Of a DNA stretch of 64,000 bases, positions 1,950 through 41,800 are shown in pieces. How positions within the stretch are numbered: position 1 is the first letter of the stretch; every line of letters begins with the position of its first letter. The notes under the pieces were generated by a model that was given only the letters and a program-made list of their open reading frames with translations, was not told the DNA's origin and ran no database searches. This DNA comes from Octopus vulgaris (lineage: Eukaryota). The DNA is taken from assembly GCA_951406725.2 (NCBI GenBank), contig OX597821.1:2418001-2482000 (forward strand), given 5' to 3'. Position numbers and translations under genes: made by a program.

Positions 1950-2357
1950 CTCTTTACTCTTTTACTTGTTTCAGTCATTTGACTGCGGCCATGCTGGAGC
2001 ACCGCCTTTAATCGAGCAACTCGACCCCGGGACTTATTCTTTTTTTTTAAGCCCAGTACTTATTATATCGGTCTCTTTTGCCGAACCACTAAGTAACGGG
2101 GACATAAACACACCAGCATCGGCTGTGAAGCAATGCTAGGGAGACAAACACAGACACAAAAACACACACACGCATACATATATATACATATATACGACGG
2201 GCTTCTTTCAGTTTCCGTCTACCAAATCCATTCACAAGGCATTGGTCGGCCCGAGGCTATAGAAGAAGACACTTGCCCAAGATGCCACGCAGTGGGACAG
2301 AACCCGGAACCATGTGGTTGATAAGCAAGCTACTTACCACAAAGCACTCCTGCGCCT
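1950..2357 (-). mobile_element. tRNA-derived SINE, family A (near full length)
   Basis: Head GGCGCAGGAGTG...TGGTAAGTAGCTTGCTTA...GGTTCCGGGTTC has Pol III A/B-box-like motifs, then an internal (TA/CA)n and a (TAAAAGAG)n-like tail. Many copies in the window. Confidence 0.85.
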
Positions 2358-2441
2358 ATATAGTTGAACACAGAACATAAAAACAGGCGACATATTGTTA
2401 AGCATTTCACCCGGCGTGCTAACTCTTCAGCCAGCTCGCCG

Positions 2442-2527
<86 letters not shown>

Positions 2528-2574
2528 TACATTTCTACATCTCACAGTGAGATTTATGTAGTAGTGTTGGATTA

Positions 2575-2947
2575 AAGTAGTTGTATACTGCTACTTAATG
2601 TGACAGTCCCATGAAGTGAATAATACTACTGATATCTAGCCCTAGGAAGCAGCACCACCTCCTGTCAACCATGACACATTCCTGTGTCCTTATGTTTACA
2701 AGTGGGAGATAAGCACCTCCACCCAGCTAAGCCAGCAACACCAGAGACTAGTTTCTGAATCATTGATCGTCTTCAGTCTGGAGTAGCGTGGCTTGCTAGT
2801 TGGAGATGCCTATCTAGCCGTTGTAAGCGTAAGGAGACAGGAAGTGTGACAAGGCTGACAGGAAGTCGTGTTGCTTCCTAGGGCTAAATAGCGGTAGTAT
2901 TATTCCCTTCATGGGACTGTCACTTTAAGTTGACAGCACACAACTAC

Positions 2948-2949
<2 letters not shown>
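2575..2949 (-). mobile_element. ~375-bp imperfect foldback element with a hammerhead motif at its apex
   Basis: AAGTAGTTGT...GTGACAGTCCCATGAAG...TAGCCCTAGGAAGCA pairs with TGCTTCCTAGGGCTA...CTTCATGGGACTGTCAC...ACAACTACTT. The element lies between (TA)n tracts. Confidence 0.75.
2741..2781 (-). ncRNA. Minimal type I hammerhead motif
   Basis: Minus strand reads CCAGA-CTGAAGA-CGATCAATGATTCA-GAAA-CTAG-TC-TCTGG. Stem I is CCAGA/TCTGG, stem III is palindromic and the triplet is GUC; stem II is imperfect. Confidence 0.75.
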
Positions 2950-2983
<34 letters not shown>

Positions 2984-2985
<2 letters not shown>

Positions 2986-3210
2986 GAAGTAAACACATAA
3001 ATGTGAAACAAGGTGGAAAAAAGAGTACTCAAATACCAGGGGTAGAGTAATATGCTTTATTCAAAAGCAGTAGAAAATTCAACAAAAGTTGTTACTCGGA
3101 GTTTCACGTTCCCGTTCGTCGGACAGTTTTTTCCGACGAACGGGAACGTGAAACTCCGAGTAACAGGTTTTGTTGAATTTCTCCTGCTTTTAAATAAAGA
3201 ATATATATAT
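2984..3210. mobile_element. Tiny inverted-duplicate element carrying a variant HHR (CCGACGA core) in each arm
   Basis: Arms at 3055-3123 and 3132-3199. Motif is AAAACTGT-CCGACGA-ACGGGAACGT-GAAA-CTCCGAG-TA-ACA. Flanked by (TA)n; a second copy lies at 37847-38060. Confidence 0.75.
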
Positions 3211-3219
3211 ATATATACA

Positions 3220-3272
<53 letters not shown>

Positions 3273-3318
3273 TGAATTGAAGAAATGGAGCTGAACGCAG
3301 ATTGAACAGAAATCGTTT

Positions 3319-3412
3319 TATTTCATTCTACACGTGTTTCGAAAGGCACAAATTACCAAAATCCGATGGAATAATGGGACCATATTGTGTCTTTCTCTTC
3401 AGGAAGAAAATA
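3319..3412 (-). ncRNA. Type I hammerhead ribozyme with extended stem II (PLE 3' end)
   Basis: Minus strand reads TATTTTCTTC-CTGAAGA-GAAAGACACAA...TTGTGCCTTTC-GAAA-CACGTG-TA-GAATGAAATA. This gives a canonical core, palindromic stem III, a GUA triplet and a paired stem I. Confidence 0.85.
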
Positions 3413-3999
3413 GGAAATCCGTTGGAAAAACAAAAACAGAACAGAGGCGGAGCAAAAACAAATCGAACTATGCTCCTAAGAGCCCATGGCGAAACTGTTT
3501 ATCAGTGTATGTTGAGAACCGGTGGCTGAAGAATTCAACGAGTCAGGCATCGGTCAATCATGTGGGTGAGGGTGCGTAGATGTTCTTTGTGACCGAGAAT
3601 AAAGTTCTGACTATTTAAGGAATATTGGATGTTTTATAAGGGGCGAGAAAAAATCTACTTAGAGACGTGTGTGTGTGTATACTGTTCTATATATGTGTGT
3701 GTTGGCGTAGGGGTAGAAAACATTTTTTGTGTACGTGTGTGCGTTTGATCGTTCGGCTGTCAGTGGCTACTGCCGTGATAACCGTTGGGTGGCAGAAAAA
3801 AAAAATATATATATCATGTTTTATGTGTGTGTGTGTTCATCTAAGCCTGCCTTGTCAAGGAAACCCCCCGCTGTGAAAAAACCAAGCCCCGTTTGTCTTA
3901 CAGGAGTAATTCCCCTTGCAGTGGTTAATCGTAGATATCTTAAAGGCTATTTCAGAATTTGTTACCAAGGGCTATGGGTGCCGGTATTATTTATAAACG

Positions 4000-5307
4000 C
4001 TATTTAAAAGCCAGATAAGTGTAACGCCGCCAATGGGGGCATCGAAAAGCCGACTGTAAAAGCCCGTTTACCATCCGGCCTCTGGCAAACAAAATATGGA
4101 AGAGTTCGGAGACACAAAGTTTGCACTGCCTTCTGCCCCTATCAAATGGGAGGGCCACCGACAAAGTTGACCATTCCAGCCTGTAGCTTAAGTTCGTATC
4201 CTTCAGTCGCCATATTAGCTTACTGAGTCCCGTGGTCTGGCGCTTGTTCATGTCCCGAAAAGTTGCGTAATGGTTGGAGACACGCAAAGACAATCTTGAG
4301 GATGAGGCCCCTACATAAGTGAAGACATCTGAGTCCGTGTAAACCTTGCATTGGTAGACGGCGTTTTTGATCTTGGAGTTCGCCGACGTGAATCTAATTC
4401 TGCTAGGATTAGTTTCTGAAATTAGAACTGCGTTCCTGTCACTATATTCGTTCCGAGACCTGCAGCCGCTTACTACTCTATTTTCCACTACGTCACTATT
4501 AACTATAGGAATAACCCCTGATTCTCCACTATCTATCAAAGTGCTGTCATTGCTACTGCCCGTGGTGCTGCTATTGCGGGAAATGATGCTGGGGATGCTA
4601 TTGGGGCTCTCTACCCTACTCCCATTGTTACCGTCAACCACAACACCCCTATTTATAACTATACCCCTAGTGGGTACTCCCTGGCTGGAGCTGAGATTAT
4701 GTGTCACTGTACTGGCTCTCATATCATTATTACTACTATAATTATTCCTACTGAGCATTAAACCGGGAGCGGAAGAGGCTGTGCCTCCGGAAAAAGGTGA
4801 TAGGGTCTTAGTAAGTAGCCTATTATTATGGGAGGCGATTATCTGGGCGAGGTTTTTAGTGTTGGAGAAAGCTATCCTAACTTTATGCGAGTTAACCGTG
4901 GAGTAATATTTGGAATTTCTGGGGAAGTTATTGGCGATGGCTTGTCTAAACATGAGGGGGAGGTTAGTTCTAATCTGCTTACCAAAGGGGATTACAAACC
5001 ATATATGCTTATTCCTATCAGTGTGATGGGTCGGGACGCCAGCTCTCGCATTCGGGTGGGTGATTCTCGGATGAATAACGGGTCTTGGGTTAGTGTAAGA
5101 CCTCCCGGACCGATAATTATCCTTGTTCGCTAAATTAAATGCGGGAGCGACTACCCCGGCATCCACCGCACTCCCGTCCTTACTTAAAATGTTAATGTTA
5201 TTATATACGGCCCTATCCTGATGACCGAATGATGGCATCGGAAGGGCCGGATCAATATAAATTACCTTCTGCCTATAACCGGCCTTGGATAGTGCGGCGT
5301 TATAAAA
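4000..5307 (-). CDS. C-terminal part of a PLE polyprotein (post-RT region plus GIY-YIG endonuclease), RT missing
   Basis: Frame is open from 5307 (FYNAALSKAGYRQKVIY, upstream of the track's Met at 5238). It continues through KHIWFVIPFGKQIRTNL...KVRIAFSNTKNLAQIIASHNNRLL to AVYQCKVYTDSDVFTYVG...NHYATFR...GLSKLIWRLK...CKLCVSE...CPHWRR. These motifs are typical of Neptune-type PLE endonucleases. Confidence 0.85.
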   Translation of the reverse strand, partial: FYNAALSKAGYRQKVIYIDPALPMPSFGHQDRAVYNNINILSKDGSAVDAGVVAPAFNLANKDNYRSGRSYTNPRPVIHPRITHPNARAGVPTHHTDRNKHIWFVIPFGKQIRTNLPLMFRQAIANNFPRNSKYYSTVNSHKVRIAFSNTKNLAQIIASHNNRLLTKTLSPFSGGTASSAPGLMLSRNNYSSNNDMRASTVTHNLSSSQGVPTRGIVINRGVVVDGNNGSRVESPNSIPSIISRNSSTTGSSNDSTLIDSGESGVIPIVNSDVVENRVVSGCRSRNEYSDRNAVLISETNPSRIRFTSANSKIKNAVYQCKVYTDSDVFTYVGASSSRLSLRVSNHYATFRDMNKRQTTGLSKLIWRLKDTNLSYRLEWSTLSVALPFDRGRRQCKLCVSELFHILFARGRMVNGLLQSAFRCPHWRRYTYLAFK

Positions 5308-29869: not shown

Positions 29870-31700
29870 ACTTCCTATGAGTCTTTGTTGTCAGTGAATG
29901 AATGCGTCATTGTGTTGTGCACTGAAGAAGATAGCCGGCGGTGTTTAGCCGGTGAAAAGTAGCTGTTGCAAAGTAAGACTTTAGTCTCTTGGGTCCGGTG
30001 GGGGGTTGTTGTCTGTGGTAATATGTTTTACAAACAAGGAGTCCTCACTGGATTCAGAACTTTAGTCTGCTTGCAGTTCAGCAATATTATACCCGTGAAG
30101 TGAAATTTTTTTCTCATTGTGAGAAGTATAGTTTGGAGGCGTATCCTGCCGCCAAAAGTTGTTCACTTTTTGTGAATAGTGTGTGTTTTTACAAGAACGT
30201 TTACCAATAATTGGAAAGCTGTATTGCAAGCAAGCATTCTATGTTCTAATCAGAATACCAAAGGGATTTGAGTACATGAATACCCAGAATAATTTTTGTT
30301 GTGTTTTGTTGAATTGTTGTTTTCTTCTCCTATTCTTTAATTGTGACTCTCTTTATTGAAGTGTTTGCTTTTCTTCTTCCCTTTTGTTTCCTTTTGATTT
30401 CTCTCTTGTCGTTTTGAAATTGTTTTGGACTATTGTTTTGGACTTTTTAATTCAAAGCACGGCAAAAAAATACGGATAAGATTGTAGAGTGGAAGATTGT
30501 CCCACCTAAGGAGTGGCTGAGACAGCAAGAGGAGAGAAAGGTGGTGTTGAGAACGTATGCGAAGATTCTCGACACCATTGCCGTCTTCTCCAGGCTGTTG
30601 ATTGAACAGGAGTTGGCGGAATATCTGCCAACCATTAACTATATCTCTAGGGGTGTCAAACATGCAACGGTGTGGTTGACATTTGTCACCCCAGAGGAAG
30701 GTCGTAGTTTTGCGAGCCAGCCTTTTGAGGGGAGAGAAGTTTTGTTTCTTCACACTTATTGTGGGAAAAAGTTAACGAGGCCTTCAGTCTGTGGTTTCTC
30801 ACCTGGAATTGAATCCGAGTGTATAGAGGATACTATCTGTCGAGGTCTGTGTGGAAGCCGAGCAAAGTTCCTAAATGTGAAAATTCTTCTTGTGGCTGAT
30901 TGGGTTGGGTCAAAAGCTGTTTTGACCCTGTGTACCCAATCAGCCATGAATCTGGTTATGCCAGATTTTTGGAAAATGGCCGGGTGCAGGTACCCGGTGA
31001 TTCTCAAGCGTGTGCCCCCCCCCCCCCCCCCGGTGTGATCGGTACCTGGAGTCTGGCCTTATAAAGAAAAACTGTCCTCAGGAACAAAGCAAAGTCCTGG
31101 AGCAGTTAATCGAGACCTCTGTAGAAGAAGGGATGAAGGCGGCCGAGGTGGTGCAGGACTCCTCGAAGAAGAGTCGCAAGAGAAGAAGGTGAGCAACAAT
31201 GGGTGCTCACCGAAGGATCCTAGGGATGCGGGAGGGGAGGCGAATCTCCCGGTTACGGAGGAGACGCACCCTCCCTCAGTAGAGAAAAAAAGATGGAGCG
31301 GAAGAGAAACGAGACATTGCCAGCAGTCGGTGACATAGCACCGGGATTTCACGGAACCATGTCGGTAGGAGTTGTGCCACCGGCAGTGGAAGAAACACCG
31401 GTGGTGGGAATTGTGCCGCCAACGGTAGAATTGACTACCTCGACCCAGGAGGAAGACCAATTTTTGGTCTTCTTTTACAGAGGCGTAAAAATAGAAAAGG
31501 TGGTGGAAAAGCACCATAAGGGATCCCCAGTGGCCTCCGCAGATAGCTGTGGAGGTCATAACGTTGCCCGTGATGCATAAGCTGGAGGTACTCAATGAAG
31601 ATTATCACTTGAGATCGGGCGACGCCGACTCGGAACCCGACTTTGTCTTGAATGAAGCGTGGGTGGTGGTGCAGTATACATGGACAAGCAATATTGGGGA
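29870..31700 (+). pseudogene. Degenerate non-LTR retrotransposon 5' region / ORF1-like gag with decayed CCHC knuckle
   Basis: GC-richer island. ORF 30541-31038 frameshifts at a poly-C run into PPRCDRYLESGLIKKNCP (decayed CX2CX4HX4C), followed by a basic/acidic low-complexity tail. Boundaries are approximate. Confidence 0.55.
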
Positions 31701-37788: not shown

Positions 37789-37846
<58 letters not shown>

Positions 37847-37847
<1 letters not shown>

Positions 37848-38060
37848 TGGAGTAAGCACATAAATGCGAAACAGGGTGGAAAAAATAGTACTCGAATACC
37901 AGAGATATTGAAAAGCAGCAAAAATATAACAAAAGCTGTTACTCAGTGCTTCACATTCCTGTTCGTTGGACAGTTTGGTTTCAAAAAAACTGTCCGACGA
38001 ACGGGAATGTGAAAATCTGAGTGATATTTTTTTGTAATATTTTTGTTGCTTTTCAATAAA
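37847..38060. mobile_element. Second, more diverged copy of the CCGACGA-HHR inverted element
   Basis: Shares the leader (GAGTAAGCACATAAATGCGAAACAGGGTGGAAAAAATAGTACTCGAATACCAG) and AAAACTGTCCGACGAACGGGAATGTGAAA with 2984-3210. Lies within (TA)n. Confidence 0.75.
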
Positions 38061-38065
38061 TTATA

Positions 38066-38130
<65 letters not shown>

Positions 38131-38320
38131 TACAAAATTAGAGAATGGAGAAACATACTTAAATCAATAAAACATCAACCATCCGATGATACCCAATCAA
38201 TACTTTAATACACCATTACATATGAGTAAAGGCATTATACAAAATGAGATATACAGTAATAGTAAAAAGATAAAGAGATATAAGTAAAAAATTTCAAATA
38301 TAATATGCAATTAAATCAAA

Positions 38321-38430
38321 ATTGACAGCTGTTTCGGCAGTGAGGGCAGTCATACCTCATTTAACCTATAAGCCATAAAGGCAGGTATAAATGAGGCATT
38401 AACAAGGATGCCCCACGGCCTCTTCAGAGA
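38321..38430 (-). ncRNA. Type I hammerhead ribozyme with ~85-nt stem II
   Basis: Minus strand reads CTGAAGA-GGCCGTGGGGCA...ATGCCTCATTTA...TAAATGAGGTAT...TGCCCTCACTGCC-GAAA-CAGCTG-TC. Stem III is palindromic and the triplet is GUC; stem I is weak. Confidence 0.8.
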
Positions 38431-40497
38431 ATTAAATTAAATTTGTTATAATTGTGAAAAATATTATATAATCATATACATATAAATATAAAAATATAAA
38501 AATATAAAATATAAAAACTTATACATCATAATGCTACACTTATATAATATAATACTCATTGGTACAATGAAGGAAGGTAAGCAGAACAAAATAAAACAAA
38601 ATATATATCAGTGTATATATTAATATTAATAAGTACCGATATTATATATATTTGGCTAAAAGTTTTTTTTTTAAAAACTAACACATAGGGAGATGAAAAA
38701 TAATAATTAAAATTAAAACCATGGTTCAGTTCATAAAATTCTAAAGTTATAAAAAATTAATAAAATTACTATTAATATTAATAATAATAATAATAATAAT
38801 AGATACAGTTAAGTTTGCACCAAGTCCATCCTTTCAAGATCGAAATAACTATGAGTTTAGAAATGCTGACCACTAGGTAAAGAAAATTTAGATTAATTCG
38901 ATTGGCTATTGGTTTGAAATTTAAAACACAAAAGAAAATTATACGGTTGGTTAGTCAAGGAACGCCAATATTCACACACGCATCTACAGATCAATCGCAC
39001 ATACACACATAGTTATATGTATATACATACACTTATACACATACATAATCACAAGCAACAACTAGCACATAGATAACCAAAAAGGGAAGCAACTATGCTA
39101 CCATTTAGTCCTTCAAAATTATAACTGTGCTTCAAATAACGAAAAAGAACCACCCATGCATTACATAAAATATTTAATTTAGATATAAATATATTTTTAA
39201 ATATCAGTATGTTACTAAGTCAGATAATTATTTCATGGGTAACTTAAAATTTATAACACCGGTTGGTTGCAAAGTAAACATACGGTTGATAGATTCATCG
39301 TAAGTTTGTTATGATTCCAAGTACGCTAAATTATAAAATATAAAATATATATTAATTTATATATATTTATATATTATAAATAAATCACTTATTTACTTAA
39401 TAAATTTAATGCCATAATATACCAGTTTAGGTATTAAAAAATAGAAGGGGAAGTACTAATGTAAACGCTTATGAGAACATCACAGAAATTTTTAAAAATT
39501 TATATTATAAATACTTAAGATAAAATGTGATAAAATAAATAAGAAGGAATAAACACGAAGGAATAAATACGGTTATACACATATTATAAGTACAAACCAG
39601 TATATATGTATTCATATATTATTAAAATTAAATAAAAATAAAAGATAGATATGTATGTATAAAACTACCCTAGTATAAGTAAATAAGTAAAAAATAAATA
39701 GATAACAAATTGGATGACTTGATATGTATGTAAACATCTACACTTAAATAGGCAAATAAATAAATATATAATTAGAAGACTAAATGCAGAGATTGATAAC
39801 ATTACAATAAAATAAAAAATAAATAAAGTGAATATATATGTTATATTGTTGAAAGTAAATATGTATGGAAGGGTAATTTAAAGTACAGATCCAGAGGACT
39901 ATAGATATAAACTAAATATATGAGGCTGGTAATATTTATAAAGCCAAATGTATGTAAAAGAAAAAATGAAAAAAATGAAAAAGGTTTATTAGTAAATAGC
40001 ATAAGATACAAATTAAGGTGAGTACAAAGAAAGACCAAATATACAATAAAAACCTTCCAAATAAACACATACAAAAAACCTATATTCTCAACCTAAACAC
40101 ACCAAACTCATAAAAGGCTCTCATATATTACATATTATACAATACAATATCATTACATTATCTAGAGCTAGGTATCTAACCAAGATATACATATATACTA
40201 TGCAATATACTATGCAATATTAGAAAACTTCAAAAATCACATATTACAAGGCAAATACCAAACTGAATATGTTATTTCATGTTATATTGCATTTCCCTTA
40301 AAAAACAAACAAAAACCCACATACAAAAACAAGAAACAAATAATACTAGACACATCTATTATTATTATACAAATGTAGCTATAAAAATTATAAAATTATA
40401 AATTTATAAGTTGTATACTTTAGAATTATAGAAGACCACAGGTGTAGTTAGTTAAAGAAGGGAGTTAAAAAATTAATAATAGTGGAAGTGCTAAGTT

Positions 40498-41332
40498 CTA
40501 TTTGAATCTAGAAAAGGTGAACGGTAGCCTATGAATGCAAAAGAAGTTTTTTTCATTAATGTTGTTAATAATTTGCCGACCCGCTTTAATAATGAAAAAA
40601 ATTTCATTAATACATAGAGAGCATTTTTTATTTTTTCCATTATACACAGGTGCTGAAGTTAGTATTTTCCAGTTTAATCTAAAATCTAAGTTCTTACTTT
40701 TAAGTTCCCAAATGTATGCACTTAGCCCTGTGGAGTACATTCTATTTTTATTTCTAAAAGTATATCTGTGATAATTCAATCTTTGTTTTATGCTATTCAT
40801 AGTTGCCCCGATATACACCCTACTACTCAATTGTGTATCTACAGTGCATTGGTAAACTACCTCCTTCCTGAGGCATTGATTACCAAATACACATTTATTT
40901 TTGTTTCTGAAATTACAAAGATTAACAGAATGAGGAAATCTAAGATTGGTCTCCACCCCTATACTACCATTCACATTATAAGTGTTACAATTGTTATCAT
41001 CATCCACACCCAAAATCAACGAATGAGTTAATTTCACATTGTCGGCTATATTCCTATCACTAGTACTAGTATTGGTAGTAGAAGTATGATCTATTACATT
41101 TATATTATCTCTGACAGGTACGGTGCACTCATTATTAGTAAGGGGGTTGTTCACATTCGTTCCAAGAAAGTTTCTGTTCCTATTATTATTAAAGAGGGGC
41201 AAATTTCCCTGGTCTAAATTCAATTTTCTATCCTTATAGAAGTGATCCAGTTTCCTGTTATTAAAAGAGGAGATAATGGTGGCTAGATTATGAGTAATGC
41301 TATATCCCACTCTAACAGTACCGTTGTTAATT
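40498..41332 (-). CDS. PLE GIY-YIG endonuclease domain (5'-truncated)
   Basis: INNGTVRVGYSITHNLATIISSFNNRKL...LCNFRNKNKCVFGNQCLRKEVVYQCTV...RVYIGATMNSIKQRLNYHRYTF...GLSAYIWELK...CSLCINE...CIHR. Clearly homologous to the 4000-5307 ORF. The first residues in the track (MPHGL) come from the inverted repeat. Confidence 0.88.
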
Positions 41333-41630
41333 AAGAGGCCGTGGGGCATCCTTGTTAATGCCTCATTTATACCTGCCTTTATGGCTTATAGGTTAAATGA
41401 GGTATGACTGCCCTCACTGCCGAAACAGCTGTCAATTTTGATTTAATTGCATATTATATTTGAAATTTTTTACTTATATCTCTTTATCTTTTTACTATTA
41501 CTGTATATCTCATTTTGTATAATGCCTTTACTCATATGTAATGGTGTATTAAAGTATTGATTGGGTATCATCGGATGGTTGATGTTTTATTGATTTAAGT
41601 ATGTTTCTCCATTCTCTAATTTTGTAGTAT
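41333..41630 (+). repeat. Inverted copy of the PLE 3' end (partner 38127-38424)
   Basis: Apparently identical reverse complement over 298 bp. It begins inside the HHR core (only AAGA of CTGAAGA is kept). Confidence 0.95.
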
Positions 41631-41800
41631 TAATTTACGGTAATATTATTACCTTTACCCATATAATACAATAGATGAACTGATTGTTTGACAATTTTTA
41701 ACATCTATGTATTAATCTTGTTGGGTACCTATCTGGCAGTATATTGGATATATATTATCCCATGGTGGGTTGAATTTTCAACCCCTATCTCATTTTATAA

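Follow-up and report, generated by a model that had tools for sequence, protein, structure and literature searches.

The DNA analysed, referred to here as the window, is a 64-kb stretch of Octopus vulgaris contig OX597821.1, from a host genome of 2.8 Gb that is rich in microsatellites. Positions 2575–2949 had been noted in a preliminary description as a hairpin with a hammerhead ribozyme at its apex. The segment does fold as a single rod, as stated there, and it does so on both strands, with predicted energies of −233.8 kcal/mol on the minus strand (z −21.1) and −216.8 on the plus strand (z −21.5), and none of 100 shuffled sequences equalled either value. Alignment of the two 171-nt arms gave 141 Watson–Crick matches. 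The mismatches, which had been called regularly spaced, are no more even than chance (spacing CV 0.78 vs 0.87 for random placement; P = 0.29), and the boundaries given for the hairpin fall short of the insertion, which extends through a tail of ~54 nt to about 2522. Using a natural copy of the repeat (L010:1401-1752) as the ruler for unit coordinates, the following parts could be distinguished.

2522–2951, minus strand: whole insertion, consisting of an inverted 5′-truncated copy, a direct copy and a tail of a ~351-nt retrozyme-type unit (mapped on L010:1401-1752)
2827–2951, plus strand: inverted segment, unit ~230–352 in opposite orientation, which supplies the left arm in the outer part of the rod (complement of the unit column majorities matched at 108 of 123 bases)
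2575–2826, minus strand: direct segment, unit 101–352 (91% to L010)
2777–2831, minus strand: 5′ side of the intrinsic ~55-bp rod, running up to and including helix I; the target of ORF1-only elements in other copies
2746–2776, minus strand: type I hammerhead core (predicted cut between 2746 and 2745)
2776–2746, minus strand: core parts, namely CUGAAGA (2776–2770), helix II (2769–2756), GAAA (2755–2752), palindromic CUAG (2751–2748) and UC (2747–2746)
2691–2745, minus strand: 3′ strand of the intrinsic rod
2522–2574, minus strand: tail, unit 1–57, with which the following tandem unit begins; found at a single end only
2490–2521: (TA)n flank
2951–2982: (TA)n flank

The order within the insertion is unit ~230–352 inverted, then direct unit 101–352 followed by 1–57, and the switch from inverted to direct lies inside a self-complementary stretch at about 2818–2831. 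No ORF1-only insert is found in this copy. The rod is a composite of an intrinsic ~55-bp stem and a ~120-bp inverted duplicate of the element's own 3′ part. Stem I of the hammerhead had been equated with the entire rod, of which the ~55 bp alone are repeat-unit sequence, and the hairpin had been contrasted with recent inversions elsewhere in the window, although it is itself an inversion, merely an older one.

Other hammerhead-bearing elements can also be seen in the window. A truncated element similar to Penelope-like elements (PLEs) occupies 3270–5307 on the minus strand, with TA flanks, a 435-aa frame and, at 3402, a hammerhead with a long helix II and a palindromic CACGUG. The C-terminus of the 435-aa frame, which has no Pfam match, is presumably GIY-YIG-like; Pfam searches with four window ORFs gave no match. 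A second PLE-like element (38120–41637) has 305-nt inverted ends that are 99% identical and a hammerhead at 38427 with a palindromic CAGCUG. A small repeat with a compact hammerhead (C/U-CGACGA core) occurs at 2983–3200 and at about 37830–38070, in part as an inverted pair, with hammerheads at 3133 (plus strand), 3122 (minus strand) and 37994 (plus strand).

At the apex, the minus strand was found to read CCAGA CUGAAGA (14 nt) GAAA CUAG UC UCUGG, with the core at 2776–2746, exactly as proposed. Rfam returned no match at gathering score in the whole 64-kb window and no hammerhead family at E ≤ 10 in 2000–4000. The type I core (CUGANGA...GAAA...UH) is nevertheless present in a repeat family to which this copy belongs, and a 35-nt core pattern gave 105 exact matches compared with 0 for the control. 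In the family, an internal loop follows the 6 bp of helix I, while helix II comprises 3–4 bp and helix III 1–2 bp. These sizes and the palindromic helix III loop, which are shared by sister families, are those of the canonical metazoan type I form (6, 4 and 1–2 bp, respectively, with a palindromic loop), which works as a dimer (PMC4209133). In 13 of 15 representatives the insert of helix III forms an exact palindrome while differing in sequence and ranging from 4 to 8 nt in length; of this insert, the search pattern had fixed solely the end letters. Position 10.1–11.1 is C-A or U-A in the family, not G-C, and A-U, C-U or U-U in the sisters; this mismatch-prone base of helix II resembles that of axolotl HHR_Amex2, which has U-U at 10.1–11.1 and is described as still cleaving (PMC7229834). 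In the window copy, helix I comprises 5 bp and helix III 1–2 bp, and helix II is damaged, with two changes that no other of 90 distinct hammerhead strings shows; the CUGAA core of the copy is predicted to pair with a new UUCAG. Because this hammerhead stands alone, with so short a helix III and a damaged helix II, cleavage is unlikely, and from the modelled misfolding the copy is probably inactive. Co-folding two strands of the apex did not yield a double hammerhead, and that fold is uninformative.

To characterize the repeat family, the element was used as a query, which gave 93 matches among 40 scored of 2405 candidates. Divergence from column majorities has a median of 6.5% (102 loci, with 21 duplicates dropped), and from this value and the 105 exact core matches the genome is estimated to hold about a thousand core-bearing copies. 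The unit is 350–352 nt long and circularly permuted, since copies lacking the inversion carry, ahead of the hammerhead arm, the sequence found downstream of position 375. Tandem copies, which had been named as something to look for, were found at a spacing of 350–351 nt as four pattern matches at three loci (two dimers and one trimer), and further tandem copies were found among loci selected by a right-arm pattern; in many loci unit 352 is followed directly by unit 1 and then by another hammerhead. No long ORF was found in six frames of the unit, and no LTR-like structure in the mapped loci. The 350–352-nt family has the 150–450-bp non-coding unit, single hammerhead and tandem copies that mark a non-LTR retrozyme, a class defined in PMC7229834, where PLEs are proposed as helpers and the main text is silent on octopus and cephalopods. 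Further traits of that class are a GC content below 50%, the lack of LTR, PBS and PPT, and expression as abundant monomers, both linear and circular. Reported unit sizes in metazoans are similar (350–390 bp in mussel and 330/350 bp in axolotl; PMC7229834), and the likeness extends to one type I hammerhead per unit and a weak palindromic helix III. Unlike those elements as described, the octopus family has copies that are mostly dispersed, truncated and inverted, with few and short tandem arrays, a covarying ~55-bp rod extends helix I, and ORF1-only inserts are present. Sister retrozyme families (L138-L162, L157, L100 and L164-L193), which are 68–85% alike or cannot be aligned, have variant cores (CCGAUGA, UUGAUAA) and palindromic helix III loops that differ.

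Inverted and direct segments lie side by side at 23 of the 29 distinct loci selected by the core and at 12 of 30 loci chosen by the right-arm pattern. The junctions differ between loci, and about 5 of the 29 core-selected loci are in or near the register of the window copy. Of 160 outward 3′ ends, 123 lie at one of two places, unit ~351 (59) or tail ~57 (64), and 31 of 35 loci with two such preferred ends have one of each (P = 3e-6). (TA)n adjoins 57 of 160 ends compared with a background of 4.7–8.3%. The inverted 5′-truncated copy, one-sided tail and microsatellite target are the features of PLE insertions (PMC8557442), and partial tandems, TA-repeat targets and a palindromic helix III also agree with published PLE insertions and pseudo-LTR (pLTR) hammerheads (PMC8557442, PMC4209133, PMC11167929). 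For PLEs, the tail is described as the interval between two start sites of the RT, which can be used on either strand, and uncut RNA as the main substrate (PMC11167929). In the octopus family, genomic segments show no pile-up of 5′ ends at the ribozyme cut (1 of 18 starting at unit 165–215 lies within 2 nt), and the templates are therefore likely to have been uncut multimers or circles. Direct segments (L064-L093) often start at unit 134–148, the stretch targeted by inserts, which is partly a sampling effect.

From this insertion anatomy, a link between the retrozyme copies and PLEs is likely. Tandem copies would be transcribed, and two hammerheads could pair through the palindromic helix III and cleave as a double ribozyme; the products may circularise. 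A PLE enzyme would then prime cDNA from both target strands on uncut RNA, multimeric or circular, with unit ~351 and tail ~57 as the preferred start points. For the window copy, the two cDNA 3′ ends (copies of unit ~96–109 and ~223–236) would be complementary, because those stretches form the base of the intrinsic rod, and could anneal in register to give a seamless hairpin. The window hairpin is thus read, with considerable confidence, as an old and probably inactive copy of a ~351-nt hammerhead-bearing tandem-unit repeat of the non-LTR retrozyme type, its intrinsic ~55-bp stem lengthened by an inverted duplicate that likely arose through insertion by a PLE RT/endonuclease into a TA repeat. 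Taken alone, it is an unremarkable, decayed representative of an already known class.

The insertion anatomy equals that of PLEs, and the unit could instead be the solo pLTR of an undiscovered autonomous PLE, with the copies being 5′-truncated PLE insertions and no independent retrozyme existing. Xenopus retrozymes are reported to be homologous to PLE pLTRs (10.64898/2026.07.22.740005), and the two PLE-like elements of the window own hammerheads with a palindromic helix III. Against this, the unit closes on itself at many loci, its helix II is short and canonical where those of the window's PLE hammerheads are long, and no PLE ORF was found to continue a unit in 123 screened loci (top candidates scored), save apparent neighbours or nested insertions; these were the PLE ORFs near L065, L078, L099, L160/L224 and L169, which were rejected as parents. 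Neither an autonomous PLE sharing the unit sequence, among the top-scoring candidates, nor, in the 123 loci of the ORF screen, an RT plus GIY-YIG ORF lying between pLTRs and continuous with the unit was found. The unit also differs from PLEs as published in having no RT/GIY-YIG ORF, a tail of ~57 nt rather than 30–40, and a canonical-size hammerhead in place of the minimal PLE form. A solo pLTR is accordingly considered improbable, and a retrozyme inserted by PLE machinery is retained as the preferred reading.

The rod had been put forward in its entirety as a selected, viroid-like RNA structure. This stands for the inner ~55 bp, where 7 of the 9 mismatches are family-wide and fixed (the register near the internal loop is uncertain) and 23 of 33 predicted pairs covary, with both partners altered. 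Pairing was found in 90% of cells of the inner rod; 0 of 500 shuffles scored as high in pairs altered at both partners, and slid controls gave 31–52%; the alignment comprised 15 hand-picked, related copies of this and sister families, and the structure was derived from that same alignment. Each intact representative is predicted to fold into a rod of 40–52 pairs beneath the hammerhead. The claim fails for the outer two thirds, an arm that the family does not have, the left arm being the reverse complement of unit 230–352. Here both arms map to one column, so family complementarity holds by construction; 17 of 121 mapped pairs mismatch, every one through a private change, with 5 being G-U and 4 A-C. 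Across 37 loci with both arms, G-U (81) is not favoured over A-C (93; P = 0.40). Because the mismatches are private and there is no G-U bias, the outer arm is not under selection for RNA pairing and has decayed neutrally. Neutral decay of an old repeat, which had been named as the outcome that would count against a selected structure, is therefore what the outer two thirds display, whereas the inner third passes.

The strong fold, the handful of core-selected loci in or near the same register and the G-U share of the outer mismatches are what a selected viroid-like RNA spanning all 375 nt might show. The junctions, however, vary by locus, the outer mismatches are private and include A-C, and the family has neither a G-U bias nor an imprint of A-to-I editing, which had been named as something to look for (A>G 1.8% vs T>C 1.5%). 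The element shares a hammerhead, size and self-pairing with Avsunviroidae and viroid-like circular RNAs but is genome-encoded, with a hammerhead on one polarity only. The predicted fold of the circular unit consists of the ~55-bp rod and branched hairpins, without the long rod, and no evidence of RNA–RNA replication was found for the element. Selection on the whole rod is thus very unlikely. That the apex is a conserved hammerhead in a retrozyme-like element rather than a DNA MITE, as first supposed, is borne out: inverted ends and TA flanks would suit a MITE with long terminal inverted repeats and a chance hammerhead-like string, but variable junctions and tandem permutation rule out fixed terminal inverted repeats with a fixed TSD, and the circularly permuted tandem units, one-sided tail and covarying hammerhead helices make such an origin scarcely credible.

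Expression of the family was examined in three RNA-seq runs from one study, with ~6% of each sampled; the species carries the family, although its label may differ from that of the window, and RNA selection is unstated. Family reads numbered 792, 757 and 570 in 12.9, 12.0 and 11.5 million (50–63 per million), about equally on both strands, and 82–85% of them continue into unlike sequence. Depth is lowest over unit 84–131, and starts or ends do not pile up at the predicted cut in any of the three runs. Reads jumping back by 352 nt (15, 16 and 14 per run) can also be explained by tandem DNA. The signal resembles what dispersed copies would give by read-through. The three libraries gave no hint of an abundant circle, a pattern compatible with either its presence or its absence.

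Several retrozyme copies break at unit 125–150 and then run into ORF1-like frames. These inserts are ~1.7 kb long with one ORF bearing a CCHC knuckle (below the Pfam cut-off, E about 1e-3) and no ORF2, and were found in several retrozyme families (L124, L125, L127, L130, L131, L049, L134-L163 and L194-L223). Duplications at the inserts span unit 125–139 (L124, L049) or 133–150 (L125, L127). A pattern for the insert 3′ end, built from inserts first met in retrozymes, gave 75 matches; among the first 30, a hammerhead core lies 21–36 nt downstream in 24, compared with 2 of 116 control stretches. A target-specific LINE is defined by more than 20% of flanks in one target, with a TSD (PMC4494074), and the inserts, at 24 of 30, agree with this definition. 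In the top 30 ORF1 loci, a retrozyme is found upstream in 26 (one by a 20-nt match only) and downstream in 19, and an exact 12–18-bp duplication is present in 10, 3 of them off target. ORF1s just 26–53% identical occupy one host family, and inserts 93–96% identical occupy hosts that are 68–82% alike or unalignable. These two observations support independent targeting of retrozymes. In 11 of the 30 top loci of one sister family the same single junction is shared, so composites also amplify as units, which weakens simple counting. Composites of insert plus retrozyme (L164-L174; L167/L168) with one junction can be seen as inverted pairs. The data suggest that the composite itself was spread by PLE machinery.

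The ORF1 of the inserts is 26–33% identical to that of a LINE with a 1134-aa APE-RT-zf ORF2. At 26 of 29 loci this LINE family (L226-L254, L255-L258), in which ORF2 is intact, is followed directly at its 3′ end by a single abundant SINE-like repeat. An ORF2 fragment in L160/L224 was rejected as the autonomous partner of the inserts, as the LINE ends ~200 nt earlier and, of 29 loci holding its relatives, 26 have another repeat next downstream and 0 a retrozyme. An autonomous partner was not found. From these features and PMC4494074, the inserts are likely Tx1-derived. Target-specific Tx1-clade LINEs described there include Tx1 (into Tx1D), Tx1-Mar (into Mariner-N4) and Keno (into U2), and the inserts resemble them in occupying a narrow site in another repeat, in the 12–18-bp duplication and in a CCHC-knuckle ORF1 related to an APE-RT LINE of this genome. 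They differ in lacking ORF2 and in having as target a ribozyme-bearing retroelement whose sequence differs between host families.

On balance, a three-tier parasitism is somewhat favoured, in which retrozymes ride PLE machinery and several ORF1-only Tx1-derived families have specialised on retrozymes, inserting 21–36 nt upstream of the core in hosts 70–80% alike or unalignable while sparing the ribozyme and proximal helix I. Such inserts could thereby be transcribed, obtain ends cut by the ribozyme and be spread by PLEs as ~2-kb composites carrying an RNA-binding protein gene. Animal retrozymes had been tied to PLEs by co-occurrence and pLTR homology (PMC7229834, 10.64898/2026.07.22.740005), the latter source supporting a PLE origin of vertebrate retrozymes in a sample given without molluscs. 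Octopus L1-Tx1 and Penelope families have been catalogued in PMC13282606, whose supplement contains no ribozyme term. In a literature search that did not extend to Repbase and subscription papers, nothing was found joining Tx1 LINEs with hammerheads or retrozymes, and among the titles listed for octopus hammerhead ribozymes none concerned such inserts or this family. The class to which the window copy belongs is already known; the retrozyme family with a PLE signature and site-specific inserts represents a new form of it. Here the insertion signature of PLEs (inversion, one-sided tail, TA target) is found on the retrozyme copies themselves, and genomic 5′ ends that ignore the cut make the choice of template, uncut multimer or circle, testable. 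ORF1-only LINE derivatives in a fixed window upstream of the hammerhead in divergent hosts represent a new target class for site-specific retrotransposons and prompt the question of what is recognised in targeting: sequence, the structure of the DNA or co-transcribed RNA. In addition, the inversions create many long hairpins within DNA that is transcribed, and these are possible ADAR or RNAi substrates.

Two further ORF1 sequences were observed. An ORF1-only element with a 14-bp duplication occupies the 3′ part of a PLE-like element at L199/L152, and a CUGACGA motif follows ~60 nt downstream. In the window itself, 30451–31038 on the plus strand holds an ORF1 fragment related to the inserts (25%, E 2e-8), located outside any retrozyme of the ~351-nt family.
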